From Thermodesulfobacteriota bacterium (GTDB lineage: Bacteria > Desulfobacterota > BSN033 > UBA1163), in assembly GCA_035625415.1 (NCBI GenBank), contig DASPPQ010000032.1, forward strand, positions 18,866 to 82,865: DNA of 64,000 nucleotides, in the 5' to 3' direction. The notes beneath the pieces are model-generated. The model saw nothing but the letters and a program-made list of their open reading frames with translations. It ran no database searches and had not been told where the DNA came from. Each line of letters begins with the position of its first letter. Position 1 is the first letter of the stretch. Positions 18,230-59,734 of the stretch are shown here, one piece after another. Position numbers and translations under genes: made by a program.

Positions 18230-18256
18230 GTCATTCCCGCGAAGGCGGGAATCCAG
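18230..18256. repeat. REP-like singlet of the gtcattcc-hairpin-ggaatccag family
   Basis: Reads gtcattcccgcgaaggcgggaatccag. Same module as the left half of the elements at 28684, 32610 and 59003. Confidence 0.6.
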
Positions 18257-18283
18257 AGGAAAAACGAATCCACTCCTCGTCAT

Positions 18284-20464
18284 TCATCTCTTCTCAAAGG
18301 TCTCGCCGGTATCTTGGTCATTTTCTGAATCACTCTTTCTTCTTTTCGGATAATCTTGATTGACCGGTAAATTGATAAAAAAGGAGGATCCCTTTTCCAC
18401 CCGACTCTCCACATCAATATAGCCTCGGTGGTCTTGAATGATCTGATGTGAGATGGAGAGCCCTAATCCGCTCCCTGTACTTTTTGTGGTAAAGAAGGGA
18501 TTGAAGATTTCCTCTATATGCTCCGGCGGAATTCCACATCCAGTATCTGTACACTCGATCTGAATGTAGGGTTCACCACCTGGTTTTATAAAGGAGCGGG
18601 TCTTTACCGTAATCTTTCCACTCGCGGATGTGGCCTGAACCGCATTCAACAAGATATTTAAAAGAACCTGTTTGATTTGTTCCCGATCAATCTGGACAGG
18701 GGGTAAATCCGAAGCATAGTTTCTAAGAATGTTGACTTGTTTCTTCTTCGTTTCTGTTGAAACCAAGAGAATCATTCCATCCAAAATCGTGTTGATATCC
18801 TCAAACTCCAGCTTTGGATCGGAAGGCCTGGCAAAATCGAGGAGCTCCTCGACTAACGAAGAAATCCGATCGACTTCCCCGGCGGCAATCTTGAGGAATT
18901 GGTCTCGAAATTCGTCATCCTCAAGCCGTTCCGGCAATAGTTGAGTTAAGGTCTTGATGGCCACCAACGGATTACGAATTTCATGGGCCAGCCCCGCCGT
19001 AAGGGTTCCCAGGGAGGCAAGACGGTCTGCTCTTCGGATATAGGATTTTGATTTTTTCAAATCTTCATAGAGCCTTGCATTCTCAATGGCGATTGCCGTC
19101 TGGTTTGCCAGGGTGCTGAGTAATTCGATATCTTCCTGGGAATAAATGTCTCTATTAAACTTATAGCCCAGGTTAAGCATCCCGATAAGTTGTCCTTTTG
19201 AAATGAGGGGGAGACTTACTTCTGCCCCTATCAGGGACATCATATTAACAATATATTTCAATTCCGGATTCTTATCCCCCTTGGTCAATTCTTCTCGGAT
19301 GATGATCTCTCCAATTTTTTGCAGATAATGCGGGAAGGGGTCATCCTTAGGAAGTTGGGGGTTTGCTGTGGTCAGATTAATATTCTTTGATTCGAATAAA
19401 GAGTAGGTCCCTTTCTCCTCATCCAATAAAAATAGAGATGCCTTCTCAACCCCCATCGTCTGTGTAATTGTTCCGAAGACACTTTTTGCAAGGGATTGTA
19501 AATCAAGAATGGTGACCATCGCTTTGCTGAATCTCGCCAGGATATCCCGATAATCATACCGATTTTTGAAAAGAAATTGCTCGACGGCCCTTTCTGTTCG
19601 AGGCTTAATTCTATCAAAAACGATCGTTACTAACAAAAGGAGGAACGAAAGAAAGCCCAATAAAAGGTAGTGGATATCTCCATAAACAAGCTTTTGGAAC
19701 AGGAGAGCTAAGAGAAAAGACGGAACAAAAAGGAGTAATATTAGGAGGGCATAGGTCGTCCCTTTTTTAAGGACAATATTGATATCCATCAACCGGTGTC
19801 TGACAATCGAATATGCTGCAAAACCAACATAGATTACCGTAAAAGACGGGCCGAGCCAATTATGTCTCGAAATCCCTGCCATTGGAAGAAATAGATTTGC
19901 ACCCACTCCGACACCAGCAGTTAAAGACATGCCCACGAAGCAGTATTTAATTTGTAGTCTAACAATACCAATAGCCTCTCTATAAGAGCTTATTAGAAAT
20001 ATGAAGCCCAAAAGGATGTAACTAGGTAAATAAACCGAGAAAAGCGGGTAAAATCGGCCGTAATTAAACATCTGAGAGCCAGAACTTAGAGAGGAAACTA
20101 TTTGATTAGTAAATGATAATCCGAAAAAAAATATTGAAGGCAACCCTAAGAATAATAGTTTTGTAGAACTCACATTCCTCCTTTCTTCAGGAAATATCAA
20201 GCTAAAACAAAGGAATGCAGCAGGTGTAATTCCCGATGTTGCAAAACTTATTCTCCCCCAAAATAACATCGAAGGAGATCCCATCAAAAGATATTCCATC
20301 AAAAGACTGAATGCCCACCCTGCACATGCCCAAGCTAGAACAGAAAAGGTTAAGTTCACTCGCCTGTGAGCTTGAGCTTTCCTGTAAACAAGCAAACCAA
20401 ACCCCAAGTTTGTTAGGAAGGCGAATAACAAGGATATTTGAGGAATAAGCAACCTTAACCTCAA
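18284..20464 (-). CDS. Sensor histidine kinase (polytopic N-terminus, GAF domain, HisKA, HATPase_c)
   Basis: About 7-8 N-terminal TM helices. H-box LASLGTLTAGLAHEIRNPL; N, G1 and G2 boxes (GCGIPPEHIEEIFNPFFTTKSTGSGLGLSI). No adjacent response regulator. Confidence 0.85.
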   Translation of the reverse strand: MRLRLLIPQISLLFAFLTNLGFGLLVYRKAQAHRRVNLTFSVLAWACAGWAFSLLMEYLLMGSPSMLFWGRISFATSGITPAAFLCFSLIFPEERRNVSSTKLLFLGLPSIFFFGLSFTNQIVSSLSSGSQMFNYGRFYPLFSVYLPSYILLGFIFLISSYREAIGIVRLQIKYCFVGMSLTAGVGVGANLFLPMAGISRHNWLGPSFTVIYVGFAAYSIVRHRLMDINIVLKKGTTYALLILLLFVPSFLLALLFQKLVYGDIHYLLLGFLSFLLLLVTIVFDRIKPRTERAVEQFLFKNRYDYRDILARFSKAMVTILDLQSLAKSVFGTITQTMGVEKASLFLLDEEKGTYSLFESKNINLTTANPQLPKDDPFPHYLQKIGEIIIREELTKGDKNPELKYIVNMMSLIGAEVSLPLISKGQLIGMLNLGYKFNRDIYSQEDIELLSTLANQTAIAIENARLYEDLKKSKSYIRRADRLASLGTLTAGLAHEIRNPLVAIKTLTQLLPERLEDDEFRDQFLKIAAGEVDRISSLVEELLDFARPSDPKLEFEDINTILDGMILLVSTETKKKQVNILRNYASDLPPVQIDREQIKQVLLNILLNAVQATSASGKITVKTRSFIKPGGEPYIQIECTDTGCGIPPEHIEEIFNPFFTTKSTGSGLGLSISHQIIQDHRGYIDVESRVEKGSSFFINLPVNQDYPKRRKSDSENDQDTGETFEKR

Positions 20465-20473
20465 TGCTATTGA

Positions 20474-21724
20474 TTAATTGAAGCCGTTAAACCTTCCAAT
20501 AATGACTACTGTATCGCTTCCGCCAAAACCCATCGCATTCACGAGGGCGACATTGACTTTGAGCTTTCTAAAATGATTTGGGACATAATTAAGATCGCAA
20601 TTTGGCCGTGGGTTTGTGTGATTAATGGTTGGTGGAACTATACTGGTGTTAATAGCTAAGAGACACGTAATTATTTGGAGGACTCCGGTAAGAGCAAAGC
20701 ATTGCCCAGTTATTGGCTTAATCGAAGTTACTGGAATCCGATATGCTAATTTTCCAAAAGTCTTCTTTATAGCAAGAGTTTCATTCAAATCAAATTCTGG
20801 CTGGGCATTACCATGCGCATTTATATAGTCGATATCTTCAGGCTTAAGGCGGGCATTCTCTAAAGCCTTTCCCATCACAATCGACCCTGCATCTCCGCTT
20901 GGATCTTTTTCAAACATATCGTAACATTCGTTTCCCGAAGCGTAGCCTAAAATTTCCCCGTAAATTCTCGTTTTTCTTTTCAGGGCATTTTGCAGCTCTT
21001 CCAGCACTAAAACAGCCCCGCCCTCGCCAAATACAATTCCATCCCCAGCGATATCAAATGGTCTCAGCGCAGCCTTAGGTTCCTTATTTTGTTTACTAAG
21101 AATTCCCCCCGCACAAAAAAGACCGACGTTACAGGGAGTGATCGGTGCCTCTCCGGCTCCGGCAAGCATGATATCAGCATCGCCCAATCTGATTGCGTTG
21201 TGAGCTGAGTAGAATGCGTCGAGACCAGAATTGCAGGCGGCAGATATTGTTGTATTCGGTCCTTTAAGCCCAAACTTCCTACTTATTATCCCGACAGCCG
21301 AATGAGTGCAAATAATCATTGCACCATGTGGACTTAGTCTCTTCATTCCCTTTTCTAAGAAAATGGCATATTGGCTTTCTATCCAGTCTCCCCCTCCAAT
21401 TCCTGTTCCGATGATTACCCCGATTCTGGATGGATCTGTTGAATTCAAGTCTATCTTCGAATCTTCAATTGCCGCTTTTGACGCTGCTAATGCAAATTGA
21501 GCGAATCTCGCCAATCTTTTTGCAGTTTTGGGGTCCATGTAATCGGTGGGGTCGAAATCTGGAACCTCGGCGGCTACTTGACACGGGTAAGAAGAGGCAT
21601 CGAAATGGGAGATTCTTCTAACTGCAGATCGGCCCTGAACTAAGGATTCCCAGAAATTCTCTATTCCTATACCGTTGGGGGCAACTACTCCCATTCCAGT
21701 TATCACGACTCTTCTTTTATCCAA
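20474..21724 (-). CDS. Beta-ketoacyl-ACP synthase II-like protein, divergent (Cys-His-Gln triad)
   Basis: Aligns end to end with FabF. The active-site Cys (ISAACNSG) and first His (NAHGNAQP) are present. The TGH motif reads KPITGQCFALTG, replacing the second catalytic His with Gln. C-terminus is AMGFGGSDTVVII. Confidence 0.8.
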   Translation of the reverse strand: MDKRRVVITGMGVVAPNGIGIENFWESLVQGRSAVRRISHFDASSYPCQVAAEVPDFDPTDYMDPKTAKRLARFAQFALAASKAAIEDSKIDLNSTDPSRIGVIIGTGIGGGDWIESQYAIFLEKGMKRLSPHGAMIICTHSAVGIISRKFGLKGPNTTISAACNSGLDAFYSAHNAIRLGDADIMLAGAGEAPITPCNVGLFCAGGILSKQNKEPKAALRPFDIAGDGIVFGEGGAVLVLEELQNALKRKTRIYGEILGYASGNECYDMFEKDPSGDAGSIVMGKALENARLKPEDIDYINAHGNAQPEFDLNETLAIKKTFGKLAYRIPVTSIKPITGQCFALTGVLQIITCLLAINTSIVPPTINHTNPRPNCDLNYVPNHFRKLKVNVALVNAMGFGGSDTVVIIGRFNGFN

Positions 21725-28601: not shown

Positions 28602-28683
28602 AACTCTCAGATTAGAGAAATCTGGATATCCGGAACTCCCTGATTAGACCAACAGTACCTTGTGTCAAGAGTCCCTTTACTTT

Positions 28684-28770
28684 GTTTGTCATTCCGGACT
28701 TGATCCGGAATCCAGTCTCTTCAACTGGGTTCCCGCTGGAGTTTACCCCGTATCGGATACGGGACGGGAA
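28684..28770. repeat. REPIN-like doublet element (gtcattccggacttgatccggaatccag - spacer - hairpin - gggaatgac)
   Basis: Terminal 8-bp inverted repeats gtcattcc/ggaatgac enclose two hairpin modules. The 27-mer tgtcattccggacttgatccggaatccag is identical to the copy at 32609. Confidence 0.65.
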
Positions 28771-29031
28771 TGACACCTTGAGAAATAATGTAAAGAAGTG
28801 TTGGGCGTACCGCACGAGTGAAACAATTTTGCAGATCAGAAATGTACTGAAAATAGAGAGGGCGAGCTTAAGTGCATGTCTATCCTCTAAGCGGTCATCA
28901 ATATTCCGTTAGAGAAATTGAGATAAAGGATTATAATTGAAATTGGGTCAGTTCACGATTCACGCCCGCCTGCCGGAAAGGCAGGGAACACGAGCACGAA
29001 TCACGTCATTTTCTGAATAGGGGGGTGTATC

Positions 29032-29418: not shown

Positions 29419-30762
29419 ATGCAGGGCCATAATCGTTACATTCCCCATACGGAAGAAGACATCCGAAAAATGCTCGACACCCTTGGCCTCGAAAAGATCG
29501 AGGATCTTTTCCAGGCCATTCCGAAAGAGTACAGGCTTTCCAACCCGTTGAACCTTCCGGAGCCTCTTTCCGAACCGGATCTTCTTCGCCACTTCGAGGG
29601 ACTCCAAGTTCCCATGATGAGTAGTTTTCTTGGAGCAGGGGCTTACCATCATTTCATCCCTGCCGTGGTTTCTCATTTGGTCTCCCGTTCCGAGTTTTCC
29701 ACTGCGTACACCCCTTATCAGCCCGAGGTTAGCCAGGGAACGCTTCAAGCGATCTTCGAATACCAGACATTGATGTGTCAGTTGACAGGGATGGAAGTCT
29801 CAAATGCGTCCATGTATGACGGCGCTTCGAGTCTGGCAGAAGCCGTTTTGATGGCACATCGGATCACGAAGAGGAAGAAAATCCTTCTCTCACAGGCGGT
29901 CCATCCCGAATATCGAAGAGTGGTTCAGACGTACATCGATCCTGACCAACAAGAGGTCATTCCGGTTCCTTATCAGAAGAAGGAAGGCCGAACGGATGAG
30001 AGGGTTTTGTTTGGACTCCTGAAAGAGGATGTGAGCGCGGTCGTGATTCAGAGCCCTAACTTTTTTGGCGTCGTTGAAGAGCTCCAACCTCTTGGGGAAA
30101 GGATCCACAGCTGTGGAGCGTTGATGATCGCAGGGTTCAGTGAAGCGGTCGCCTATGGAATTTTGCAGCCTCCCGGTGCGATGGGAGCCGATATCGTTGC
30201 AGGCGAAGGCCAGAGCCTGGGTATCCCTGTGTCTTATGGTGGTCCTTATCTCGGAATCTTCGCTACTGTTGGAACATTTGTCAGGAATATGCCCGGTCGC
30301 TTGGTTGGCGAAACGATTGATCTGGAGGGGAAGAGAGGGTTCGTCCTCACCCTGGCGACCAGGGAGCAACACATTCGGAGAGAGCGGGCTACCTCTAATA
30401 TCTGTACGAATGAAGGACTTTGTGCCCTGATGGCAGCGGTTTTTCTATCCTGCCTTGGAAAAGAAGGTTTGAAAGAATTAGCCATGATGAACCTGAGCAA
30501 AACGGAATATGCAAAGAAGGTTATTTCCCGAATTCGTGGCTGCAAACTAAATTTCACTGCTCCCACTTTTAACGAATTCGTCCTGCGGGTTGAAAAAAAC
30601 CCTGAAGAGATTTTGGAGAAGCTAAGGAAGAAGGGGGTTTTAGGCGGCCTTGCTTTAGAAAAATTTTATCCTGAACTCGATCATCATCTCCTCGTCACTG
30701 TAACCGAGATGAACAAGAAAGAAGAGATCGACCGCTGGGCTGAGTTTTTAGAGAAAGCATAA
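29419..30762 (+). CDS. gcvPA: Glycine dehydrogenase (decarboxylating) subunit 1
   Basis: 447-aa N-terminal P-protein subunit. Sits immediately after gcvH. Confidence 0.9.
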   Translation: MQGHNRYIPHTEEDIRKMLDTLGLEKIEDLFQAIPKEYRLSNPLNLPEPLSEPDLLRHFEGLQVPMMSSFLGAGAYHHFIPAVVSHLVSRSEFSTAYTPYQPEVSQGTLQAIFEYQTLMCQLTGMEVSNASMYDGASSLAEAVLMAHRITKRKKILLSQAVHPEYRRVVQTYIDPDQQEVIPVPYQKKEGRTDERVLFGLLKEDVSAVVIQSPNFFGVVEELQPLGERIHSCGALMIAGFSEAVAYGILQPPGAMGADIVAGEGQSLGIPVSYGGPYLGIFATVGTFVRNMPGRLVGETIDLEGKRGFVLTLATREQHIRRERATSNICTNEGLCALMAAVFLSCLGKEGLKELAMMNLSKTEYAKKVISRIRGCKLNFTAPTFNEFVLRVEKNPEEILEKLRKKGVLGGLALEKFYPELDHHLLVTVTEMNKKEEIDRWAEFLEKA

Positions 30763-30824
30763 TCCCCCTCTTTCCCCCTTTAGCAAAGAGGGATGAAGGG
30801 GGATTTGATAAGGTAGGTAATAGA

Positions 30825-32333
30825 ATGAAGAAAATAGATGATACCGGGCTTCTCCAAGATGAACTTCTGATATTTGAGCAAGGAGGCAAAGGAAGAAAAG
30901 GATATTCTTTGCCCCGGTGGGATGTAGAGGAAGTGGAAGTCCAGAACTTTTTTCCCCCCGGTCTCTTGCGCAAGGAGCTCGAAGGATTTCCGCAACTGAG
31001 CGAGGTCGATGTGGTGCGCCACTTCACACGACTTTCCCAATGGAACTACGGAGTGGATAGCGGGCTTTATCCATTGGGTTCTTGCACGATGAAGTATAAT
31101 CCGAAAGTGAACGAAGAGATTGCGAGGATGAGCGGATTTTCGAAAATCCATCCCTACACTCCCGAAGAACTTTCTCAGGGAATTCTGAGATTGATGTTCG
31201 GGCTTCAAGGCTTTCTTGGCGAGATTACCGGGATGGATCATGTCACATTACAGCCTGCGGCAGGAGCGCACGGGGAATTGACTGGGATGATGATGGTCAG
31301 GGCCTGTCTTCAAGCCCGTGGGGAGAAGAGAAAAAAAGTGTTAGTGCCGGATACCGCCCATGGAACCAACTGCTCTACTTCTTCGGTCGCCTCTTATCAG
31401 ATGATCGAGATTAAATCGAACGAAAATGGGGTGATCCCTCCGGAAAAAGTGAACGAGGTGATGGATGAAGAAGTGGCAGCCATCATGGTAACGAATCCTA
31501 ACACGCTGGGCCTATTTGAAGGACATCTGGACAAGATCGCCGGGATTGTCCATGGCAAAGGAGGGTTTGTCTATTGCGACGGTGCCAATCTCAATGCCCT
31601 GATGGGTGTGGTAAAACTGGGTGAATTGGGGGTGGATGTGGTCCACATCAATCTCCATAAGACCTTCTCAACTCCTCACGGTGGAGGAGGTCCCGGAGGC
31701 GGCCCGGTGGCCGTCAAAAAGGAGCTTGCCCCCTATCTCCCGATTCCGGTGATTGAAAGACGGGGAGAAAGTTATCGGCTGAACGATGACCGGCCTCACA
31801 GCATCGGAAAGGTGAAGACCTTCTACGGGAACTTCGGAGTCTTGATCAAAGCTTATGCCTACATCCTCTCGATGGGAGCGGAAGGGCTCAAGAAGGCGAG
31901 TGAGATGGCCGTGCTTAACGCCAACTATCTGATGAAAAGGCTAAAGGACTATTATCATCTTCCCTATGATCGACCTTGCATGCACGAGTGTGTCTTTACT
32001 GACCGGATTCAAGAAAGATATCAGGTCAGCACCCTCGACATCGCCAAAAGGCTGATTGATTACGGTTTTCATCCTCCGACAATCTACTTCCCCCTGGTTG
32101 TGAAGGGTGCGCTGATGATGGAGCCTACAGAGACGGAGAGCAAGGAAAGCATCGATCGATTTATTGAAACGATGATTATAATTGCTAAAGAGGCAGAAGA
32201 AGATCCGGACCTCCTTCGACAGGCGCCTCAGAAGGTGAAGGTAAGGAGGCTCGACGAAGTCCTGGCTGCGAGAAGGCCGAAATTGAAATGGACTGCTCCC
32301 TCGCCCTCTTCTCCCCGACGGGGAGAGAGATAA
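30825..32333 (+). CDS. gcvPB: Glycine dehydrogenase (decarboxylating) subunit 2
   Basis: 502-aa C-terminal P-protein subunit with the PLP-Lys region (HINLHKTFSTPHGGGGPG). The last ~20 aa run into the repeat region and may be an over-extension. Confidence 0.9.
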   Translation: MKKIDDTGLLQDELLIFEQGGKGRKGYSLPRWDVEEVEVQNFFPPGLLRKELEGFPQLSEVDVVRHFTRLSQWNYGVDSGLYPLGSCTMKYNPKVNEEIARMSGFSKIHPYTPEELSQGILRLMFGLQGFLGEITGMDHVTLQPAAGAHGELTGMMMVRACLQARGEKRKKVLVPDTAHGTNCSTSSVASYQMIEIKSNENGVIPPEKVNEVMDEEVAAIMVTNPNTLGLFEGHLDKIAGIVHGKGGFVYCDGANLNALMGVVKLGELGVDVVHINLHKTFSTPHGGGGPGGGPVAVKKELAPYLPIPVIERRGESYRLNDDRPHSIGKVKTFYGNFGVLIKAYAYILSMGAEGLKKASEMAVLNANYLMKRLKDYYHLPYDRPCMHECVFTDRIQERYQVSTLDIAKRLIDYGFHPPTIYFPLVVKGALMMEPTETESKESIDRFIETMIIIAKEAEEDPDLLRQAPQKVKVRRLDEVLAARRPKLKWTAPSPSSPRRGER

Positions 32334-32609
32334 GGTCAGGGGGAAATCCCAAATTTCAAATCCCAAGTTCCAAATAATGACCAATTATCAAACTCCAAAA
32401 GTGAAAATTGAATATACCCCCTCTCCCATGGTGGGAGAGGGCGACGGTGAGGGGGGCCATACCATACCCTCCCCCACCTTGATCCTCCCCCATAAAGGGG
32501 GAGGATAGGCTTTGGCCTGCATGCGCGAAGTCCCGCGTTGCGGGACGGAGGCAGGTGCTCGGGATTTGGAATTTTAATGTGACGTCTCATAAATTATTTT
32601 ACAGAGACT

Positions 32610-32673
32610 GTCATTCCGGACTTGATCCGGAATCCAGGCTTTTCAACTGGATTCCCGCTTTCGCGGGAATGAC
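32610..32673. repeat. REPIN-like doublet element, second copy
   Basis: Reads gtcattccggacttgatccggaatccag ggcttttcaactggattcccg ctttcgcgggaatgac. Same architecture as the copy at 28684. Confidence 0.65.
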
Positions 32674-32733
32674 GACCGGCATCATCATTGTAATGAAGTG
32701 TTAGATTCACTACACTATTGCATAGAGCGAACC

Positions 32734-33411: not shown

Positions 33412-33915
33412 ATGGATAAAAAGGAAGAAGGTGGCACAGGCTTCCAGCCTGTGAGTTCCTTCAGAATTAGCAGAAGAAATCTCCCTCATTGGCAGGAACC
33501 TGACAGAGTATATTTTTTGACATGGCGATGCCTGAAGGAACAACTCTTATCACACGAAGAGCGCACAATAACCTTGGACTGTCTATGTTACTGGATTGGA
33601 CAAAAGTGGACTCTCTATGCGGCCGTGGTTATGCCGGATCATGTCCATACTTTGTGTCAACCATTGGCCAAGAAGAAAAGCGGCACATATGACTTAGGAG
33701 AGATTTTGCACAGTGTGAAGAGTTTTAGTGCACATAGAATCAACCAGCAAAGAGGAACGAAGGGATCGATCTGGTTAGATGAGCGGTTTAATCGCATTGT
33801 GCGTGATGAGAAGGAATTTGATGAAAAGTGGCAGTATATAAGGAACAATCCAGTAAAGAATGGGCTTTCTGAAAGGCCTGAAGACCACCCCTGGTTTTAT
33901 GAGTCGGTTTTATAA
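33412..33915 (+). mobile_element. REP-associated tyrosine transposase (RAYT, IS200/IS605 Y1 HUH family)
   Basis: 167 aa. RRNLPHWQEPDRVYFLTWRC matches the RAYT N-terminal motif. HUH motif MPDHVHTL and a downstream Tyr region (RIVRDEKEFDEKWQYIRNNPV). Flanked by matching hairpins cacaggcttccagcctgtg at 33436-33454 and cacaggccggaggcctgtg at 33919-33937. Confidence 0.75.
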
Positions 33916-33964
33916 CACACAGGCCGGAGGCCTGTGCCACCTGTGCTTTGGGAGTTTAAATAAA

Positions 33965-36324: not shown

Positions 36325-36373
36325 CCCCTCACCCCCTCCCTCTCCCAGCGGGGAGAGGGGAAGGGTGAGGGGG
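36325..36373 (+). terminator. G/C-rich hairpin terminator (cccctcaccccctccctctcc cagc ggggagaggggaagggtgaggggg)
   Basis: Near-perfect 21-bp stem directly after the lipA stop. Confidence 0.6.
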
Positions 36374-37397: not shown

Positions 37398-38015
37398 TCA
37401 CCGGGAGCCGGGTTTATTGCCGATTCGACGCACGGACTCGTTAAGCCCGGCTTTAGTCTTGAGTTCCCCGTATCTGAAACAACCCACGACATGATCGTTT
37501 ACCATGCCGACTGCTTGCATGAATGCATAACAAATAGTTGTCCCAACAAACTTGAATCCTCTTCTCTTCAAATCCTTACTCATGGCATCAGATTCTGGAG
37601 TGCTAGAGGGAATATCCGTTATCTTTTTCCATGAATTCCGGATTGTTTTTCCTTTAACGAACTGCCAAATGTAATTGTCAAAACTTCCAAATTCTTTCTG
37701 TAACTGCAGAAACGCTCTGGCGTTAGTGATCGTCGCGCTGATTTTAAGCCTATTTCTTATGATCTCAGAGTTGTGCAGTAACCTAGGAATGTCAGCCTGT
37801 GAGTATTTGGAAATCTTCCGGGCATCGAAGTTATTAAAAGCCTTTCTGTAGCCTTCCCGCTTCTTGAGAATAGTAGACCAACTCAACCCCGCCTGCGCAC
37901 CTTCTAAAATAAGAAACTCGAACAGACTTCTGTCATCGTGGATGGGTACACCCCATTCATCGTCGTGATAGGACTGTTCGAGCTCGCCCCTGTCAGCCCA
38001 CTCACAACGTCTCAT
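37398..38015 (-). CDS. tag: DNA-3-methyladenine glycosylase I
   Basis: MRRCEWADRGELEQSYHDDEWGVP matches the Tag N-terminus. The ...FVGTTICYAFMQAVGMVNDH motif and a Zn-binding C...HxxxC pattern are present. Confidence 0.85.
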   Translation of the reverse strand: MRRCEWADRGELEQSYHDDEWGVPIHDDRSLFEFLILEGAQAGLSWSTILKKREGYRKAFNNFDARKISKYSQADIPRLLHNSEIIRNRLKISATITNARAFLQLQKEFGSFDNYIWQFVKGKTIRNSWKKITDIPSSTPESDAMSKDLKRRGFKFVGTTICYAFMQAVGMVNDHVVGCFRYGELKTKAGLNESVRRIGNKPGSR

Positions 38016-38058
38016 CTGCCGCCCTCGCTTGATTCCTTTGATGAATGACGACTGGAGT

Positions 38059-38298
38059 CAGCGGTGGCTTTTGGCCGTCCGCTGCACCTCATTAGGCAAG
38101 TGCCTTTCGATTTGCTCATAAGACAGAGAAGGAAGGCTTGCTTGCTTTCTGGCATGCTCAATCGTCATGGCAACCAAATTGCCAGAAGTATCGAGATCGA
38201 TGCAAATATTTTCATTTATCTCTTTGGTTTCAGCAACTTTACGGTCAGAAAACTCAACTAAGGCCGTATCGGTATCAGAGAAATACTTTTATCTTCAT
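38059..38298 (-). pseudogene. DUF2283-family antitoxin-like gene with a +1 frameshift
   Basis: ATG AAG ATA AAA G|TAT TTC reads MKIK, then one extra nucleotide shifts the frame into YFSDTDTALVEFSDRKVAETKEINENICIDLDTSGNLVAMTIEHA (DUF2283 pattern MKIxYD..DALYI...DxDxxGxLVGIEIL). It is not in the ORF track because of the frameshift. Confidence 0.5.
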
Positions 38299-38299
38299 T

Positions 38300-38488
38300 T
38301 CATTCCTCCCTTAAATCTCCTATCAAAAAAGCATTATGAACGGTTTCGCCATCTGGAAGCAAGATCACGCGGAGAAACCTACCCTCCTCCTTGATCTTTT
38401 TCCACTTTCGGACCCTCTTATCCGATTGAACCTCCATAAAGTCCGGATTCCTAATCGTCTCTTCAATCCATTCCGCCATTATTTCCAA
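38300..38488 (-). CDS. DUF4258-like small protein (putative toxin partner of DUF2283), possibly N-terminally short
   Basis: 62 aa. ...IRNPDFMEVQSDKRVRKWKKIKEEGRFLRVILLPDGETVHNAF fits the DUF4258 core. Its stop abuts the DUF2283-like start, the usual toxin-antitoxin operon layout. Confidence 0.4.
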   Translation of the reverse strand: MEIMAEWIEETIRNPDFMEVQSDKRVRKWKKIKEEGRFLRVILLPDGETVHNAFLIGDLREE

Positions 38489-38526
38489 TCAGCCCACTAA
38501 GACCGCCTTATTATCATTTTTTACGT

Positions 38527-39099
38527 ATGCTGTCTATAAAATACTTGATTGTATTCTGTAAAGATGTAACTGATATTGTCCTCATCTATCATCTCTTGCG
38601 AAAACATATCTTTGTTAAGGGGATAAAGGACACGTGGACTGAAGTTAGCTCCAATCTAACCACTTATTGGAAAAACACGCAGAAACAATTAATGGTCTAT
38701 CAAAGGGGAAAGGCGAGGGATTCTGGAAAACTCGACCGTGTGAGGATCGAGTTGACCGTATCCCGTGACCTCTTGAGAAAAAGAAGAATCCTTACTCTTG
38801 AGGACATGATTCGAGATATCAAATTCTCCGAAGCATGGCAGGAGGTACTCCGTTTTGAGCATTTCACGTCGCCCAATATGCCGGAAGATCGCAACTATTT
38901 AGCTAAAGACAGAGAAGGTAATTTTGACGCCTTCCAGCTTGAATATTTGGAGAGAAACAAAAGTGAGAAGGACATGGCAAAGTGTATGGAGAGTTTGAAG
39001 GAATTGGATTCATTTAAAGATCGCCTTTCAAATGTTGTAAAGGAATTCGATGAGAAATGGAAGTGGCCAGAATATTTATGTGTCCTTAACAGTAAGTAA
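38527..39099 (+). CDS. Hypothetical protein (AT-rich island)
   Basis: 190-aa ORF with coding-like composition. No motif recognised. Confidence 0.35.
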   Translation: MLSIKYLIVFCKDVTDIVLIYHLLRKHIFVKGIKDTWTEVSSNLTTYWKNTQKQLMVYQRGKARDSGKLDRVRIELTVSRDLLRKRRILTLEDMIRDIKFSEAWQEVLRFEHFTSPNMPEDRNYLAKDREGNFDAFQLEYLERNKSEKDMAKCMESLKELDSFKDRLSNVVKEFDEKWKWPEYLCVLNSK

Positions 39100-39126
39100 T
39101 TTGCAAGAAACTGTATCATTAAAGAT

Positions 39127-39612
39127 TCACCACCTCCGTGGAGGCAGCGACCTCAAATCAATCAAATCAATAAGAGTCTTGACAACATTGCTCTTTATTG
39201 TTTTTCCTTTATAAATATATTGAACATAACATTCCAGCGTGTATGAACCAGACACCATAGCGCCAGGAGTCTTAGTTTGAACTTGAATCTTTCCTGCTGC
39301 CACATAATCTTCATCTGTTACATTAACACAGTATGGACCGTCACCTGACCAGAAGAAACAAACTGTTTTTATCTCTCGTTCGTCGTCTGCCTGAAAACTA
39401 ACATTAACCACAAAAGGAGTGGTCATCGTGACAGAATCAGCCGCCGGCACCTCTATTCTTAATAATCTAACCTCGCCCTCTGCGAGAGGTCCGGTGGGCA
39501 CTGAGGCGCAAGAAGAAACTAATAAGAAGCCGCAACCTACTAAAACAGCAATTAAAGTAGACCTCATAGCTAAAAATCTTGCCCATCTCAACATTACCAT
39601 GAATGCCTTCAT
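39127..39612 (-). CDS. Hypothetical lipoprotein/secreted protein
   Basis: Signal peptide with lipobox-like LVGCGFLLVSSCAS. 161 aa with no recognisable domain. Confidence 0.4.
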   Translation of the reverse strand: MKAFMVMLRWARFLAMRSTLIAVLVGCGFLLVSSCASVPTGPLAEGEVRLLRIEVPAADSVTMTTPFVVNVSFQADDEREIKTVCFFWSGDGPYCVNVTDEDYVAAGKIQVQTKTPGAMVSGSYTLECYVQYIYKGKTIKSNVVKTLIDLIDLRSLPPRRW

Positions 39613-39874
39613 AGTGAGAGAAGATACCAGAAATGTTCAAAGAAGTCAAATAAGTAACAATCTGTTTTGTGGAAATTATCCTTTTATCAATTCCTTTTTC
39701 AAAAGGGAATCAGAGCAATGAATTTATCGATCTGGTAGGGATTGATTTAAGACACTGAATATACCAAATGTATCTATTTTAGGGCGTGTGTTTAGTTAAA
39801 GGGGTGAGAGAGAAATAATAAAGGCCATGAAATTTCGAGTAAACGTTTCATATGAATCACGACAAGATAAGATG

Positions 39875-40378
39875 CTATTTCCCACGGACCCTTTTTGGAC
39901 GTTTCCTCCCGCGCAAAGGAACCTTCTTTTCAGCCCTCTGTGCCGCTTTATCTTCGAGAAGCTTTCTTGCCTCACGACGGCCAAACTTTCGAAGCGCCAC
40001 GATCGCCGCTTTCTTTTTCATGCTTGGCTTAAACTGACCGCTCTCCCATTGATGCACTGCTCCGACGGTGACATCCGTCAGAACGGCCAACTCCTTTTGA
40101 GTGATGCCTAAATGTCTCCGCAGGCTTCGGATCAAGCGGGGAGAGAATCGCGACACCTGTACCTCTTCCGGAGCCGCCTCGAGAGGTTTCTTTCCTTTTT
40201 CCAACTCTTTTTGCTGACTGGTTGTAATTCGTTGAAGTGTTAAAACCGCTTTGCGAAGTTGCGAGACCACAGTTTTTAAGGACCGGACATCACGGCCCAA
40301 TGGAACAGAGATCTTTCGCACTTCCCGCTTTGCCAAACGGACAATTTCAGATTTGATAATTATCTCGAACTTTGCCAT
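39875..40378 (-). CDS. XRE-family helix-turn-helix DNA-binding protein with basic C-terminal tail
   Basis: HTH LGITQKELAVLTDVTVGAVHQWESGQ. The Lys/Arg-rich C-terminus reads RGRKRPKRVRGK. Confidence 0.55.
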   Translation of the reverse strand: MAKFEIIIKSEIVRLAKREVRKISVPLGRDVRSLKTVVSQLRKAVLTLQRITTSQQKELEKGKKPLEAAPEEVQVSRFSPRLIRSLRRHLGITQKELAVLTDVTVGAVHQWESGQFKPSMKKKAAIVALRKFGRREARKLLEDKAAQRAEKKVPLRGRKRPKRVRGK

Positions 40379-40829
40379 AAGTCCCCCTCCTTCGATTTTT
40401 CAATGAAAACCCGTCCATTCTCTAAAACCATCTAATCCATTATAGAAACAGGAACCTTTTGTCAAGCATTTTTTGTCCCCTGTAAGGATAAACTTTACCA
40501 TTCAAAAGAATTGTTAGCATAAACGATTATGGGTGAGACTGTCGAAAAAGTCCCCAGGCAGATTCTTGGGTGAGATGCAGAAAAAAATGACCTCACAGAA
40601 TGCACCACAATCAACGATCCCATAATTGCGAGGGGTCATGAGCCCCCCGAAAATCACCCATTAACTATGCTGGAGGGTTTTTCGACAGTCTCGGTTGTAA
40701 TCTGCACTATTAAGGCAAAATGACTTGCAGAAGATTACAGGGCAATCTTCGGACAAGTGACCCCAATATTCCGCCGAAAGATATTCAGGCAGGTCATGAC
40801 TTCATGGATAGGTCGCTAAAAACAGATGA

Positions 40830-40880
40830 GTTCGAATAAGCGTCATTCCGCAACTTCGCTACGGAATGACGCTTATTCGA
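40830..40880. repeat. Perfect 20-bp stem hairpin (ttcgaataagcgtcattccg-11 nt loop-cggaatgacgcttattcgaa) related to the gtcattcc repeat family
   Basis: Exact inverted repeat in the sequence. It contains the gtcattcc/ggaatgac termini of the REPIN-like family. Confidence 0.6.
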
Positions 40881-40984
40881 AAGCGAGTATAGCAATCAAA
40901 CTTAGAGGTGTGACGGTAAACCCCCTCTCTTTGGACGAGAGGAAGGGGTTAGTAGGCTGGTTTGGTAACCTAAAACTGGGGAAA

Positions 40985-41431
40985 TTATCGACATAACTTC
41001 CAATATAAGGCTCCTATTGAATGCTCTTGCCACACAGGAACCCACTCTTCCAGTTGTCGCCTGTGTATGTTGCTGAAAATAATCCCACCTTCTTCCGAAC
41101 AAATCATATAAAATCTCCTGCGACACTCCTTTTTCTTACAGTTTATTTCAGAAACGTTTATTTGGTACGCAGCTTTCTCGTATTCACTTCTTGTGAATCC
41201 CGAGGATCTCAATTCTTCTTTCGTATGGAAGACTTCTTTCCACCAAACTCTTATGATATTTTCTGGCAACCTATTAACGGTATCAGAGTCATAAAACAAA
41301 TCGGACTCTAAATCGTGCGAGAAGAATATCCAGTTCCAACTTTCTCCATATGCTTTCGTTTGAATCACTACGAGACCGATAACCACAAGCATGATTCCCC
41401 ATTTCATCCGGAATCGTCTCTTTTTGCTCAT
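40985..41431 (-). CDS. Hypothetical secreted protein
   Basis: N-terminal signal/TM segment MKWGIMLVVIGLVVIQTKAYG. 148 aa, Cys-containing, no recognisable domain. Confidence 0.35.
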   Translation of the reverse strand: MSKKRRFRMKWGIMLVVIGLVVIQTKAYGESWNWIFFSHDLESDLFYDSDTVNRLPENIIRVWWKEVFHTKEELRSSGFTRSEYEKAAYQINVSEINCKKKECRRRFYMICSEEGGIIFSNIHRRQLEEWVPVWQEHSIGALYWKLCR

Positions 41432-42588
41432 AACCTTTCCCTCCTCTGTTCGGATCTGTTTGTACGAGGTGACCTTAAAACAAAAGTGAATAAGAAGAGG
41501 TTAGGAATGACAAAAAATTTCCGAGAAAGTTAAAGCAACTAAGATAATTACCTTTTTTACCGCCTCCTTTTTTCTTGAGAGTCAACTCTCATTCTTTTAG
41601 GTATTCACTTTTTTACTGTTCTCAAGAATCGAGCCAAAGCTGAAAAGATTCAAGAAAAATTTTTGATAAGAATAGAATGAGATGGAATTACATTGAGTTA
41701 GAAAGAAGTAGGACAAAGACCAAAAAATATTATTCCTCAAGAAATGGATATGATAATGCTGAATATTTCTGCAGTACTCGTTAGCAGAGTTTCTTAAATG
41801 CTTAAGAATTATGCATATTTTATTGTTGAAAATGTAAACATTGCTCTGTTAATATTCTCAGCACTTTTAATTGGCAGTGTTAGTGTGTAAGTCTCAATTG
41901 AAAGTTTTTCTCTACTAGAAAAGATAATACTTATTTTTTATGCGGTTAGATTGTTAGCGGGGTATTGATGAACGGATTTAACGAACCGATAACGGGGGAT
42001 AGGGGGTCAAAATTCTCGGATGATGGGCCTTGTTGTTATGCTAACCCTCACAAATTTTTTATGTCATTTTTGATATTGAAATGTGAGGTTGTAGCTTTAT
42101 CTCCTTGTTTGATATGAGGTTTAAATCAAGGGTTATACAGTGGGTAATGCCGAGGAAGGGAAGGGCTAATGTCATATTGCAACCTTCAAGGAGGTGCGTA
42201 TAGTGGCAAGAACATCGGGCCATCGTAGGCGGGGAACTTCACATGATTTGAATCGGTAATCACCGGTGCTACTTTTCTTGACATACTAGTCCCTTTATTT
42301 TATATTGCCTCTGTTTTTGGCGGGCTTATCCATGGCAGCGGATGTTCTGGCTCCTATCAAGCGGAGGCCCAGGCATTGCGGTGCGCGCCGTCTTCGTGAA
42401 AACCGGGCAGTTGGGTCTAACGAGGGTCTGGTGCGGCATTTCCAAAATAGTTCGATATGATGATTCGGCCTAAATGGCACTCAGCAGCCAATCATGGGCA
42501 CGCTTCATATCGGAAACTTACGAGATGCTGCGCTGGAGAATCGAGGGATTTTCCCTGTCATTAATTTCAATGGAAGGAGGGTACGTCA

Positions 42589-54462: not shown

Positions 54463-54685
54463 TAGAATAGTAAAGGGGAGAGGGGAAGGGTGAGGGGAGG
54501 TCATTTGGAATTAGAATTTACGCGGAACGGTTTGAAACCGTTCCCTACAAGGATTTACCTGCCTGCTCTGTACCATATTAGGTTCAGGGCCTGCCGGTAG
54601 GCAGGGAATTTGTGATTTGGGATTTTGAACGCTGTGCGCTCCGCGCTTAGCGCTATGCGTATCTTCTAAATGAGGGAGGGTTAAC

Positions 54686-56443: not shown

Positions 56444-56517
56444 TTTTTGCCCCTCATCTTGTCCGTCTTCAGCCCTATTTCCTCCCCCTTGACGGGGGAG
56501 GGTGAAGGTTGGGGTGA

Positions 56518-57327
56518 ATGAAGGTTGAATCCATGCTGATCGTCGGAGAAAGAATCAACGCCTCTCGAAAGCCTATTGCCGAAGCCATCGCCTCACGTAA
56601 CGCCGTCTTTATTCAGAATGAAGCAAAGGCTCAGGCCATTGCAGGAGCTAACTATCTCGATGTCAACGCCGGGACGTTTGTGGGAGAAGAGGCGAGACAT
56701 CTCCAGTGGGTTATCGAAACAGTTCAGGAAGCCGTAGCCCTTCCCTTATGCATTGATAGTCCGGATCCTTCTGTGATCAAGGCGATGATTCCTTTGGCAA
56801 AGAAAACTCCGATGATTAATTCCATCACACTGGAGCCCTCACGGTTGGAAGGAATCCTGCCGTTAATTGTTAAGCATAAGACCAAGGTCATCGGTCTTTG
56901 CCAATCGGGAGACGCTATTGCTGATACCGCAGAGGCAAAAGTGAAAATGGCTGGACAGTTGATTGAGGGCGTGAAGGCTGCGTCCATTCCTCTGGATGAC
57001 CTCTACATCGATCCCCTCGTCTATCCCCTCGCGACGAATGACAGGTCAGCGTTGGCCACACTTAATGCCATGGAGCAGATCATAACCCAATTTCCGGGTG
57101 TTCATACCACTTGTGGCCTAACGAACGTTTCTTACGGACTCCCGAACCGAAAGCTTGTCAATCGAACCTTTCTTGTGGCGGCCATCGCTCGTGGTCTGGA
57201 TTCCGCTATCCTGGACCCTACTGACAAAGAGCTCTTCGGCGCTCTCAAGGCCGCTCTTCTGGTTTCCGGCAAGGATGAATTCTGCATGGGATATATCTCA
57301 GCCTTTCGCGAGGGAAGGTTTGAGTAA
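56518..57327 (+). CDS. Pterin-binding methyltransferase (methyl-corrinoid:tetrahydrofolate methyltransferase, MetH/AcsE/MtgA-like)
   Basis: Motifs IVGERINASRK, ANYLDVNAG, GLTNVSYGLPNR and AILDP match the DHPS-like pterin-binding TIM barrel of MetH and methyl-THF:corrinoid methyltransferases. Confidence 0.85.
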   Translation: MKVESMLIVGERINASRKPIAEAIASRNAVFIQNEAKAQAIAGANYLDVNAGTFVGEEARHLQWVIETVQEAVALPLCIDSPDPSVIKAMIPLAKKTPMINSITLEPSRLEGILPLIVKHKTKVIGLCQSGDAIADTAEAKVKMAGQLIEGVKAASIPLDDLYIDPLVYPLATNDRSALATLNAMEQIITQFPGVHTTCGLTNVSYGLPNRKLVNRTFLVAAIARGLDSAILDPTDKELFGALKAALLVSGKDEFCMGYISAFREGRFE

Positions 57328-57360
57328 ATTTATTGACTGATCGCGTATAGCTGGTCGCGG

Positions 57361-58026
57361 ATGGCAAACATAAAATACCTGGTGATCGCCTGTAATATTA
57401 TGAAGGACGAGATTCTCCGTTTTCAGGCCAACGGAATCTCCTTCGTTTTCTTGGAGCAGTCCCTCCATCGAACGCCCCAGAAGATGAAGCCGATCATTCA
57501 GGCGGAGATCGACAAGGCTGAAGAACAGGATTGGGATTACATTATTTTGAGCTATGGGCTTTGCAGTAACGGGATCTTGGGTGTCAAGTCGAAAAATCAT
57601 CCCATCGTCATTCCTCGTGTCCACGACTGCATTGCTCTTTTTCTTGGCTCGTGGGAAAAATACATTGAGGAGCACAGGAAGGAACCGGGCACCTACTATT
57701 TGACCAAGGGATGGATCGAAGAGGGCAAATCGCCTCTCGGAATATTTCAGGAATATTGTCAGCGCTACGATAAAGAGACGGCCGAATGGGTGATCAGGGA
57801 GGAGTTGAAGAACTACACGAGAATTGTGTTGGTGGACATGGGTGCCGAGTCGGAGGCCCTTCGGGAACATGCGAGGGAGAACGCGCATTTCCTCAATTTG
57901 AGGTATGAGGAGATGAGAGGGTCTTTGGAATTTTTTGAGAAGATGCTCCAGGGATGCTGGGATAAGGATTTTATCATCTTGAAACCCGGTGAAGAAGTAA
58001 CACAGGAATTATTTTTAGATCTTTAG
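57361..58026 (+). CDS. DUF1638-like protein (family recurrently found next to corrinoid methyltransferase genes)
   Basis: 221-aa soluble protein sitting between the methyltransferase and the activator remnant. The family assignment is from memory and was not computed. Confidence 0.4.
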   Translation: MANIKYLVIACNIMKDEILRFQANGISFVFLEQSLHRTPQKMKPIIQAEIDKAEEQDWDYIILSYGLCSNGILGVKSKNHPIVIPRVHDCIALFLGSWEKYIEEHRKEPGTYYLTKGWIEEGKSPLGIFQEYCQRYDKETAEWVIREELKNYTRIVLVDMGAESEALREHARENAHFLNLRYEEMRGSLEFFEKMLQGCWDKDFIILKPGEEVTQELFLDL

Positions 58027-58065
58027 CCGACTTTTGTCTTACTTTGCTTTTTATAAGAAGAATCG

Positions 58066-58976
58066 ATGAAAAAGTTTGAAATAATCTTTCAACCTTCGGG
58101 GGTGAGAGGTGAAGTTTTGGAGGCAAAGAGCATCCTTGAAGCCTCGAGGGAATTGGGGGTCGAAATAGAATCTCTCTGTGGAGGGAAGAGGGCCTGCGGC
58201 AAATGCAAGGTTAAGTTGGTGGAAGGGTCCCTTTCGGCCTTCACGGATGATGAAGCCAAGTTCATCACGGAAAGAGAAAGAGTTGAGGGTTATCGACTTG
58301 GATGCGCGGCTCAGATTAGAGGAGATGTTTCAATTCTTGTGCCCGAGGAGAGCCGTCCCGGAAAGCAGGTGCTCAGAAAGGCGGCTACCGGAAGATCAAT
58401 TGAACTGAATCCTGCGATCCATCCCTACTATGTCGAACTCTCCCTACCATCACTCGAGATCCTCATGGAGATCTTGATCGGCTTAAAAAGGGACTTTTCG
58501 AAAAGTATCATCTCTCCTCACTCCGTATCGATTACCATGCCTTGTTAAGGCTTCCGACGCTTCTGCGGCAGGGAAATTGGAAAGTCACTGTTGCCGTATG
58601 GATGGAGAAAGAGATTCTGGATGTCAAGCCTGGAAAGCTAGAGGATGCTTATGGGTTGGCTGTCGATGTTGGAACCACAACAGTTGCTGCCTATCTCTGC
58701 AATCTCAGAAGCGGAGAGGTGATAGCGACTGAATTGATGATGATTCCTCAGATCAGTTACGGTGAGGATGTGATGTCAAGAATCACTACTTTGACCCATC
58801 CAGAGGACGGTCTTGAAAGGATGCACAGGTTGATTATTGACGGACTGAACCAATTGGTCAGAGATATCACCGGAAAATGCCACCTCGGCGCAGAGGATAT
58901 TTTAGAGTTGACCTTTGTGGGTAACACTGCCATGCATCATTTCTTTATGAAGATCGATCCTCGGTACCTAGTGTAG
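58066..58976 (+). pseudogene. RACE-type reductive activator of corrinoid enzymes (RamA/RACo-like), frameshifted and truncated
   Basis: The N-terminal 2Fe-2S ferredoxin domain reads CGGKRACGKCKV...GCAAQI. A -1 frameshift lies near 58460-58540 (frame +2 ...SLPSLE, frame +1 ...DPHGDLDRLKKGLFEKY). The ASKHA domain begins LAVDVGTTTVAAYL...VGNTAMHHFFMKIDPRYLV, then hits a stop at 58976. Only about 300 of an expected 550-650 aa remain. A repeat element starts 27 nt downstream. Confidence 0.65.
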
Positions 58977-59002
58977 TGCGTCCAACACTTCTTTACAAAA
59001 GT

Positions 59003-59089
59003 TCAGAAGCTATCATTCCTGCAAAAGCAGGAATCCAGTTGAAATCATTGGATTCCCCCGTGTCAAGCACGGGGCAAGCTTGGTCAAGC
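59003..59089. repeat. REPIN-like doublet element, third copy (atcattcctgcaaaagcaggaatccag ... ccggaatgac)
   Basis: Same bipartite architecture and termini as the copies at 28684 and 32610. Related partial copies occur at 59379-59405 and 54580-54600 (cctgccggtaggcagg hairpin). Confidence 0.6.
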
Positions 59090-59734
59090 CCGGAATGACA
59101 TTCAAAGTAAAGGGACTTCTGACGCAGTAAACCAGTTGCATAACCTTATCTTCCCATTTATTCTTCGTAAGAACTTAAAATTAGTATCCGGCCGAATTCT
59201 CCTAGTGTTCTAAACCACTTTTTAAACAATCCCGCAGGCGTATCGGTCCCCATCCTCCAGTGCCCCCTAACCACCTAAATCATTTTGCTTGTATGGGATG
59301 GCAGGAGCTGAGACCCGGGTCGCTCGTCGGAACCGCTGCGTTTTGTGAAGCCTGCTGAGCAATCCTTCATGACGCGAGCGTCATTCCTGCCTGCCGGTAG
59401 GCAGGGCCGATGGTGGGGCAGGCAGGCTCAAACCATGAAAAACATAAATCCCCCCCGTCCCCCTTTAGTAAAGGAGGGTTGGGGGGATTTGCAAATGTAT
59501 CTTTCAGGCAATAATGTTACCGTTAACACAAATGTCCATGTTACAATTAGCACAACCGTGTTTATTTCGAGTCAGGCGCGGCATCAAATAAAATATATAT
59601 GAGATAATATATTGAAATAATTTAGAAATAAATTTTACATTCACTTTGATAAAAAATTCACTTTTTTGTTGAAACTTTAGGTTATTGGTTCTATAATTAT
59701 GGCCAATTCATAACTCAGAACGGAGGAAATTAAT

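Follow-up and report, generated by a model that had tools for sequence, protein, structure and literature searches.

Hairpin pairs resembling the Neisseria Transformation Sequence on a probable TA-associated miniature element in an uncultured Thermodesulfobacteriota bacterium

The DNA analyzed here (the window) is a 64,000-nucleotide stretch of a Thermodesulfobacteriota genome (assembly GCA_035625415.1, contig DASPPQ010000032.1, positions 18,866 to 82,865). It contains the genes gcvH, gcvPA and gcvPB followed by lipB and lpd, a gene for a REP-associated tyrosine transposase (RAYT; REP, repetitive extragenic palindrome), and the broken gene of a corrinoid activator (RACo). Dispersed in the intergenic regions is a family of hairpin repeats that begin with the 8-mer GTCATTCC, three of which are bipartite. 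Two bipartite copies bracket gcvH-gcvPA-gcvPB, in agreement with an initial annotation that had placed copies on both sides of the gcv operon, and the third lies at the truncated end of the RACo gene. The explanation that we favor, and consider probable as a whole, is that these repeats are pairs of the Neisseria Transformation Sequence (NTS), the target hairpin of the small GIY-YIG nuclease Ssn, which derive from an ssn cassette and are carried on a miniature inverted-repeat transposable element (MITE) of the TA type.

The hairpin motif occurs in the window far above chance. The GTCATTCC 8-mer is found at 13 sites on both strands (nine of them inside features cited in the initial annotation), against ~2 expected by arithmetic from length only, and the patterns TCATTCC-N11-GGAATCCAG and ATTCC-N6-16-GGAAT occur 2 and 10 times versus 0.05 and 2.6 expected, respectively. 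All three bipartite copies described earlier are present, with cores at 28688-28774, 32610-32673 and 59012-59099, which moves copies 1 and 3 by 4-10 nt. Copies 1 and 2 do share an identical stretch (tgtcattccggacttgatccggaatccag), but its length is 29 nt, not 27 nt. Copy 3 aligns only as the reverse complement, and its supposed left module is its right hairpin.

Alignment of the three copies with their flanks showed that conservation extends past the GTCATTCC and GGAATGAC ends into arms of ~33-45 nt per side, so that the 8-bp repeats previously taken for the ends are internal to units of 139-162 bp. Copy 1 (28655-28815, plus strand) is a 161-bp MITE with a left and a right arm and degenerate ends, located between an ABC ATPase gene and gcvH; its hairpin 1 is simple (GGACTTGATCC), and its hairpin 2 holds the extra module GGAGTTTACCCCGTATCGGATACGGGA. 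Copy 2 (32577-32715, plus strand, 139 bp, arm subfamily B) lies between gcvPB and lipB and is flanked by TA at 32575-32576 and 32716-32717. Copy 3 (58971-59132, minus strand, 162 bp, arm subfamily A) carries the module AAGCTTGCCCCGTGCTTGACACGGGG in hairpin 1 and has a TA beside it at 58969-58970. The core is a nested palindrome of the form GTCATTCC-hairpin1-GGAATCCAG-(4 nt)-TTCAA-CTGGATTCC-hairpin2-GGAATGAC with a spacer of 9 nt between its two hairpins, and all full hairpins read (C/T)GTCATTCC...GGAATCC, that is with GTC 5′ of the palindrome and C directly 3′ of it. Both the alignment and the core patterns bear out the earlier description of two hairpins in inverted orientation, an architecture like that of REP doublets forming hairpins (REPINs). 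In folding comparisons, the units lay far below shuffled controls (z = −3.7, −2.8 and −5.5), with copy 3 at z = −3.7 on the minus strand and −2.8 on the plus strand. Across 16 distinct 64-nt cores, 96% of the cells are paired, and two positions of the core stem show compensatory double changes, one from A-T to G-C and the other from C-G to T-A; each of these is probably a single subfamily-level event.

The NTS/Ssn system was described in 2025 (Nat Commun, PMC11893778). The NTS has a 28-nt consensus, CGTCATTCCCGCGMAVGCGGGAATCYRG, which contains the repeat dRS3, and SsnA is a 94-aa single-domain GIY-YIG protein (cd10448) that binds the NTS hairpin only as single-stranded DNA (ssDNA) and cuts a few nucleotides upstream, on one strand orientation of the motif only; the residues mutated in SsnA were Y6, Y17 and E64, and an NTS-ssnA-NTS architecture was reported across many phyla (PMC11893778). 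Two window hairpins match this consensus at 28 of 28 positions. One is the singlet CGTCATTCCCGCGAAGGCGGGAATCCAG at 18229-18256 (plus strand), already recorded near 18230 and situated directly 3′ of a histidine kinase gene; the other is the right hairpin of copy 2 at 32647-32674 (minus strand). They contain the dRS3 sequence ATTCCC-N8-GGGAAT at 18233-18252 and 32651-32670, the other hairpins being ATTCC-N-GGAAT variants. On simulated windows, the published degenerate pattern for Ssn-related motifs (SRMs) gave a mean of 0.36 matches. The hairpins of the family share with the Neisseria motif the oriented 28-nt form with its two exact consensus matches, the 5′ CGTC, the C after the palindrome, and an extragenic, dispersed location (PMC11893778). 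By sequence, the GTCATTCC-stem-loop-GGAATCCAG hairpins are thus Ssn-related motifs (NTS/SRM) and predicted ssDNA targets of small GIY-YIG Ssn nucleases of the cd10448 type.

The boundaries of the arms were read from the flanks of ~95 non-redundant copies anchored on the core. Homology ends abruptly on both sides, at (C)TA|GTGTACTGCGTCAGAAGTCCCTTTACTTTGAATG-core on the left and at core-CAGCTTCTGAACTTATGTAAAGAAGTGTTGGACGCACTACAC|TA(G) on the right. TA is present at 69% of the left and 69% of the right junctions, with C at −3 in 59% and G at +3 in 57% of the copies and random bases farther out. The termini are imperfect inverted repeats of ~30 bp (5′-GTGTA...TACAC-3′) abutting TA, and in the consensus sequences the outermost 12 bp of the left and right arms match in inverted orientation at 11 of 12 positions. 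The units measure 136-240 bp (median 161 bp) and fall into two arm subfamilies, A and B, across which the core is conserved more strongly than the arms. Throughout ~1 Mb of element-bearing loci, all arm pairs are ~190 bp apart, and two solo arms were also found. The inverted repeats, sharp ends and TA/CTAG junctions together suggest that the unit spreads as a non-autonomous MITE. Judged from these termini, its ends are the signature of a putative IS630/Tc1-mariner-type MITE with a likely TA target-site duplication. IS630 itself prefers CTAG as a target.

The units resemble IS630/Tc1-mariner MITEs such as the Correia elements of Neisseria in their size (~140-240 bp), non-coding nature, imperfect inverted repeats of ~26-30 bp, TA at both junctions, preference for CTAG, and ability to disrupt genes; elements of the IS630 family insert at TA and duplicate it (PMC2170065). 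Their TAGTG...CACTA termini recall the TATAGTGG...CCACTATA ends of Correia elements, a likeness of a few terminal bases only. In contrast to such MITEs, their interior consists of a nuclease-recognition hairpin pair and not of transposase remnants. A blastn comparison of the element with 72,556 plasmids gave no match.

For a census of the family, the central core GGAATCCANNNNNTTCAACTGGNTTCC was used as a search pattern against one genome each for 185,579 species and against the JGI metagenomes. The species genomes contained 14 matches, 12 of which are in Thermodesulfobacteriota, Syntrophaceae or "delta proteobacterium" metagenome-assembled genomes (MAGs), with one match each in a Planctomycetales and a Hydrogenophilaceae MAG. 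At least 118 loci were detected in the metagenomes, mainly in peat, wetland and sediment samples. Among the matches listed there are ~110 distinct loci, and a single 64-nt core sequence recurs unchanged at 25 loci. A location within 150 nt of a contig end, observed for 33 of the 144 matches, is expected because a repeat breaks assemblies. The proposal of a dispersed, extragenic family of hairpin repeats is therefore upheld: its members have conserved termini and are not confined to a few copies. This census also bears on the possibility that the hairpins are ordinary gene-specific terminators or attenuators resembling one another by chance, which we consider extremely improbable. The copies are indeed all intergenic and strongly structured, and several are located just 3′ of stop codons. 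However, a terminator scan gave no call at either copy 1 or copy 2, T-runs are missing from the hairpins, near-identical 64-nt cores with conserved 30-bp arms recur at ~110 unrelated loci across phyla, and presence varies at orthologous sites (see below); the dispersed near-identical cores, the variable presence and the missing T-runs rule out terminators as the origin of the repeats. An Rfam scan of the whole window at the gathering threshold had no hits, so that neither a glycine riboswitch nor any other known RNA is indicated at the elements.

Comparison of orthologous sites points to mobility of the unit (contigs other than the window are given L numbers). The site 3′ of orthologous M23 peptidase genes spans ~202 nt in L085 versus 3 nt in L189, and the extra segment is one unit from arm to arm, so that this empty and filled pair locates the insertion to within ~2 nt of the arm ends. 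Copy 1 is fixed, with single-nucleotide polymorphisms only, in seven strains of the same species; the orthologous spacers of L143 and L145 are much shorter and do not contain it. Copy 2 occupies an identical position in the closer relatives L131, L088 and L097 and is absent in L143, L145, L146 and L148. The relatives with 80-86% LipB identity (L143-L148) have no elements in their gcv spacers, and these spacers have diverged too far for the exact junctions of copies 1 and 2 to be defined from an empty site.

The RACo gene is broken into a Fer2 part (58066-58548) and a linker/middle part (58542-58976), which are in different frames. As the initial annotation had stated, one copy coincides with the point of truncation: the open reading frame (ORF) ends within copy 3, with the stop codon at 58974-58976 inside its terminal repeat, and no remainder of the ATPase domain was found downstream in the window. 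The RACo gene (58066-58976) is probably a pseudogene. With copy 3 marking this truncation and two copies bracketing the gcv genes, the elements do reshape operon spacers.

The link to the nuclease comes from related contigs. L085 carries two MITE copies and, as the one match of a tblastn search with GIY-YIG consensus queries, a gene for a 96-aa protein that was then verified by Pfam (GIY-YIG, 62.6 bits). The residues Y8, Y19 and E66 of this protein have the same spacing as Y6, Y17 and E64 of SsnA. The gene lies between perfect 50-bp inverted repeats (GTCATTCC-[module]-GGAATCCAG ... CTGGATTCC-[module]-GGAATGAC), whose module is of the type present in hairpin 2 of copy 1. Homologues with 80-100% identity are arranged likewise in six further, unrelated gene neighborhoods, and a 96-aa Pfam GIY-YIG gene flanked by inverted hairpins is thus found in L085, L150, L152, L160, L186, L187 and L189. 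The cassette boundaries are identical in all seven contexts, (y)ATTC|GTCATTCC...GGAATCCAG-ssn-CTGGATTCC...GGAATGAC, with no arms. The junctions are also alike, with TTCAA|CTGG in the window cores and TTTGA|CTGG at the 3′ end of ssn. The 96-aa GIY-YIG protein family comprises more than 7,900 proteins. A search of the plasmids with the ssn cassette gave only a weak match to a Shinella GIY-YIG gene, and a PDB search for a solved Ssn structure gave only a weak UPF0213 match.

Since inverted NTS pairs flank ssn in relatives, the window cores look like gene-less NTS pairs, and such a pair may have arisen from the cassette by deletion. The ancestral setting in this lineage would be a ~430-480-bp cassette made of an NTS, the 96-aa ssn gene and an inverted NTS, and the window cores would represent this cassette minus the gene, leaving two outward-facing NTS hairpins 9 nt apart. 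The core is enclosed by the ~30-bp imperfect inverted repeats, and the whole unit would insert at TA, preferentially within CTAG, mobilized in trans, most likely by an IS630/Tc1-mariner-type DDE transposase that targets TA. The loop slots of the hairpins gain or lose small CTTGA-loop hairpins, also between orthologous sites, probably by recombination or conversion between copies. The source genome presumably encodes an Ssn that cuts these sites, and by analogy with Neisseria the effect on the host could be to limit the integration of incoming ssDNA carrying the motif.

Like the Neisseria system, the related contigs have an inverted NTS-ssn-NTS arrangement around a 94-96-aa single-domain GIY-YIG gene (PMC11893778). 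In contrast, the host here is an uncultured, anaerobic member of the Thermodesulfobacteriota, and the text of PMC11893778 names no Desulfo-, Deltaproteo- or Syntropho- taxa. Moreover, the motif is found here mostly as gene-less inverted pairs with a 9-nt spacer inside a TA-abutting MITE, with no ssn in the window, and the predominant hairpin variant is built around a CTTGA pentaloop, optionally with further hairpin modules nested inside. The novelty lies in the combination of NTS pairs that have no gene between them, their packaging in a MITE, the modules with CTTGA loops, and the Thermodesulfobacteriota as host; the kinds of element themselves are known. The exact Neisseria recognition hairpin now appears in a distant uncultured anaerobic lineage, which widens the reach of the Ssn/NTS system. 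It also suggests a route of multiplication in which the nuclease gene is lost between its flanking hairpins and the pair that remains is afterwards multiplied within a conventional TA-flanked MITE. Expansions of NTS may not require the nuclease as a transposase.

Another reading would make the hairpin pair itself the mobile or expanding unit, driven by Ssn as a GIY-YIG analogue of the REPIN-RAYT system, with the arms as one context that it has invaded and the loop modules inserted through Ssn-dependent cutting and rejoining of ssDNA. Arm-less cores do exist in other phyla (Hydrogenophilaceae L008 and Planctomycetales L002/L064, with L006 lacking the left arm), and the ssn cassette, having the same boundaries in seven unrelated neighborhoods without arms, moves on its own. 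Conservation of the core beyond the arms across subfamilies A and B and the in-situ changes of modules would likewise suit this reading, and the NTS-ssnA-NTS arrangement was likened to an insertion sequence by the authors who reported it (PMC11893778). Nevertheless, we regard it as unlikely, because SsnA cuts a single strand orientation and has no known joining activity, inverted repeats would receive one cut per strand so that no unit would be excised, and the 60-odd armed copies all end at the arms and not at the core. A combined form, in which Ssn itself propagates the hairpin pairs and loop modules as a second "domesticated nuclease plus hairpin replicator" that additionally rides a DDE-type MITE, appears doubtful, if slightly less so. 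If Ssn propagation were true, the MITE would seed nuclease targets throughout the chromosome in an anaerobe that is not known to be naturally transformable.

Several observations weigh against the favored explanation, MITE-borne NTS pairs derived from an ssn cassette. The published SRM pattern picks up only the two exact NTS hairpins in the window, and most window hairpins (GGACTTGATCC, CTTGA-loop type) are variants, though they share the GTCATTCC...GGAATCCAG frame. Regex scans and consensus queries found no ssn or other GIY-YIG homologue in the 64-kb window, regex scans of the other loci were equally negative, and only 1 of ~140 element-bearing loci has ssn. The 96-aa protein is a candidate member of cd10448, as judged from Pfam, size, residue spacing and context. 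Neither a transposase nor a full-length element with the same terminal repeats was found in ~1 Mb of element-bearing loci, which also sets the units apart from MITEs with a cognate transposase, and the 64-kb window contains no transposase for them. The TA is not strictly separable from the inverted repeat itself, and the flanks of the sole empty site are 83% identical, too diverged for a clean TA. A related 5.2-Mb MAG has only three copies of the exact pattern, so that copy number per genome may be modest. Finally, the literature also assigns the hairpin in its Neisseria form to a RAYT (bioRxiv 10.1101/2021.07.10.451892), which disagrees with the Ssn literature.

The loops of both core hairpins are slots in which extra hairpins may be accommodated. 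A CTTGA-type pentaloop is present in 176 hairpins, versus 3-18 for control loops, and these hairpins fall into four fully compensated stem classes. In copy 2 the loop of hairpin 2 is TTTC, versus a 27-nt module in the orthologous copies of L088 and L097; module content likewise differs between the ssn cassettes at the orthologous L085 and L189 sites, and in L099 the module CCTGCC-GGTA-GGCAGG lies within a full element. These differences at orthologous sites point to exchange between copies, as has been proposed for the Neisseria intergenic mosaic elements (NIMEs; PMC1797815). A further conceivable reading is that the repeats are NIME-like recombination substrates or integration sites for an IS110/Piv-type recombinase, comparable to dRS3 and the Nf prophages of Neisseria, and that Ssn plays no part. 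Two hairpins fit the dRS3 sequence, inverted hairpins bracket a spacer in both systems, and the mosaic make-up that varies between orthologous sites resembles the recombination-driven variation of NIME arrays (PMC1797815). In contrast, NIMEs form long arrays with 50-150-bp repeat-sequence (RS) units of more than 100 families, and as of 2007 they had reportedly not been seen in organisms other than Neisseria (PMC1797815). The elements described here are isolated pairs with a spacer of 9 nt, defined outer inverted repeats and TA junctions, with no long dRS3-RS arrays; no IS110/Piv-like gene was present among the window ORFs examined, and the genes found in direct association with the hairpins encode GIY-YIG proteins. 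We consider an Ssn-independent origin of this kind quite improbable.

The presence of a RAYT gene in the same window had led the initial annotation to connect it with the repeats. The ORF at 33412-33915 (plus strand) does encode a RAYT (NCBIfam NF047646, 91.3 bits with a cut-off of 80), and the gene and its REP pair interrupt the gcv-lipB-lpd gene string between lipB and lpd, an arrangement kept in L146 (81% LipB identity). In this scenario the repeats would be REPINs mobilized by the RAYT, a Y1 HUH transposase that would recognize the hairpins in ssDNA and copy the inverted pair. The extragenic inverted pairs, ~60-90 bp across, and the bona fide RAYT located 740 bp from copy 2 would fit, and Bertels and Rainey took the Neisseria hairpin ATTCCCGCGCAGGCGGGAATC to be the REP unit of REPINs that are linked to a Group 2 RAYT (bioRxiv 10.1101/2021.07.10.451892). 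The elements indeed share with the REPIN-RAYT systems, which have Group 2 or 3 RAYTs, the two short inverted palindromes, an extragenic, non-coding and multi-copy nature, and a single-copy partner gene that has these hairpins on both sides (ssn, in relatives).

However, the window RAYT has its own inverted REP pair, at 33431-33454 (GGTGGCACAGGCTTCCAGCCTGTG; hairpin GGTGGCACAGGCttccaGCCTGTG) and, as its inverse, at 33918-33943 (CACAGGCCGGAGGCCTGTGCCACC), of the form GGTGGCACAGGC-N5-GCCTGTG. These hairpins (GGCACAGGC...GCCTGTGCC) differ in sequence from those of the family, and judged by its flanks, the usual criterion, the window RAYT is not the partner of the GTCATTCC repeats. The REP pair is conserved around the orthologous RAYT of L146 (5678-6260), where copy 2 is absent and no element lies 5′ of lipB, and it was found nowhere else in ~1 Mb of element-bearing DNA. 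Both RAYT and element are missing from L143 and L145, and L148 has no RAYT; the joint absence in L143 and L145, together with the RAYT of L146 that has no element, indicates that RAYT and element are independent. A tblastn search of ~0.9 Mb of loci with the RAYT matched only the syntenic gcv locus, so that no RAYT lies near any of the ~110 other loci. Furthermore, DDE-style inverted repeats abutting TA are not a product of Y1 transposition, and the hairpin-flanked partner in relatives is a GIY-YIG nuclease and not a Y1 HUH transposase. We therefore consider mobilization by this RAYT very improbable, although another RAYT, one that does partner the family, could be encoded elsewhere in the source genome. 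The window RAYT seems to be a solitary one that has no REPIN population, and its position beside hairpin repeats is no evidence that it mobilizes them; the flank test separates the two systems.

Several sequences outside the window carry related motifs. The Hydrogenophilaceae contig L008/L066 has, at 3527-3553, an arm-less inverted pair of Neisseria-type hairpins (ATTCCCGCGCAGGCGGGAAT) with an identical TTCAACTGG spacer, and the pair architecture thus crosses phyla. The exact 27-mer GTCATTCCGGCGAAAGCCGGAATCCAG, which flanks ssn genes, is present as intergenic singlets in 23 IMG/VR viral contigs (L163-L185) with no ssn homologue nearby; none of these 23 contigs contains the bipartite MITE core, and the bipartite pattern had no match in IMG/VR. 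In L152, arrays of variant hairpins of the GTCATACC..., GTCATGCC... and GGGGTGAC types surround one ssn homologue (1330-1500 and 1792-1900), which suggests that motif subfamilies co-exist around a single nuclease gene.

The remaining window hairpins are of mixed kinship. The perfect 20-bp stem noted earlier near 40.8 kb was confirmed (40831-40850 and 40862-40881); this palindrome (40831-40881, no strand assigned) has the structure TTCGAATAAGCGTCATTCCG-loop-CGGAATGACGCTTATTCGAA with GCGTCATTCC at the 5′ side on either strand, and it is kin to the family through its GTCATTCC/GGAATGAC ends, while lacking the GGAATCCAG 3′ flank and the arms. At 59379-59405 (plus strand) lies a partial member, CGTCATTCC, which has no closing GGAAT arm and is followed by a CCTGCC-GGTA-GGCAGG module. 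Three hairpins earlier counted as relatives (28969-28985, 54590-54605 and 59390-59405) proved to be CCTGCC-loop-GGCAGG structures, a separate small module rather than GTCATTCC hairpins. Two of them stand alone as members of an accessory module class (no strand assigned): CCTGCC-GGTA-GGCAGG at 54590-54605, and CCTGCC-GGAAA-GGCAGG at 28969-28985, 5′ of gcvH.

The 20-bp-stem palindrome is situated in a stretch of lower GC content (38000-42000; 0.41 versus ~0.49) that also contains an ORF for an HTH/MqsA-like antitoxin (39875-40378) and three ORFs with no Pfam match, and which may be an acquired islet. A second repeat class, made up of GGGGAGAGGGGAAGGGTGAGGGG and CCCCCTTTAGCAAAGAGGG-type palindromes, is found at 32320-32342, 32432-32454, 36350-36372 and 54475-54497 and also at 30754-30801 and 59439-59486; a ~140-bp block of these palindromes upstream of copy 2 is present in the window and L131 and missing from L088 and L097. 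AT-rich short repeats (AAATCCCAAATTTCAAAT / TTTGGCATTCATTTGACATTTG) recur in spacers adjoining the elements, at 32345-32420 in the window, at 4870-5000 in L143 and in the right flank of L012.

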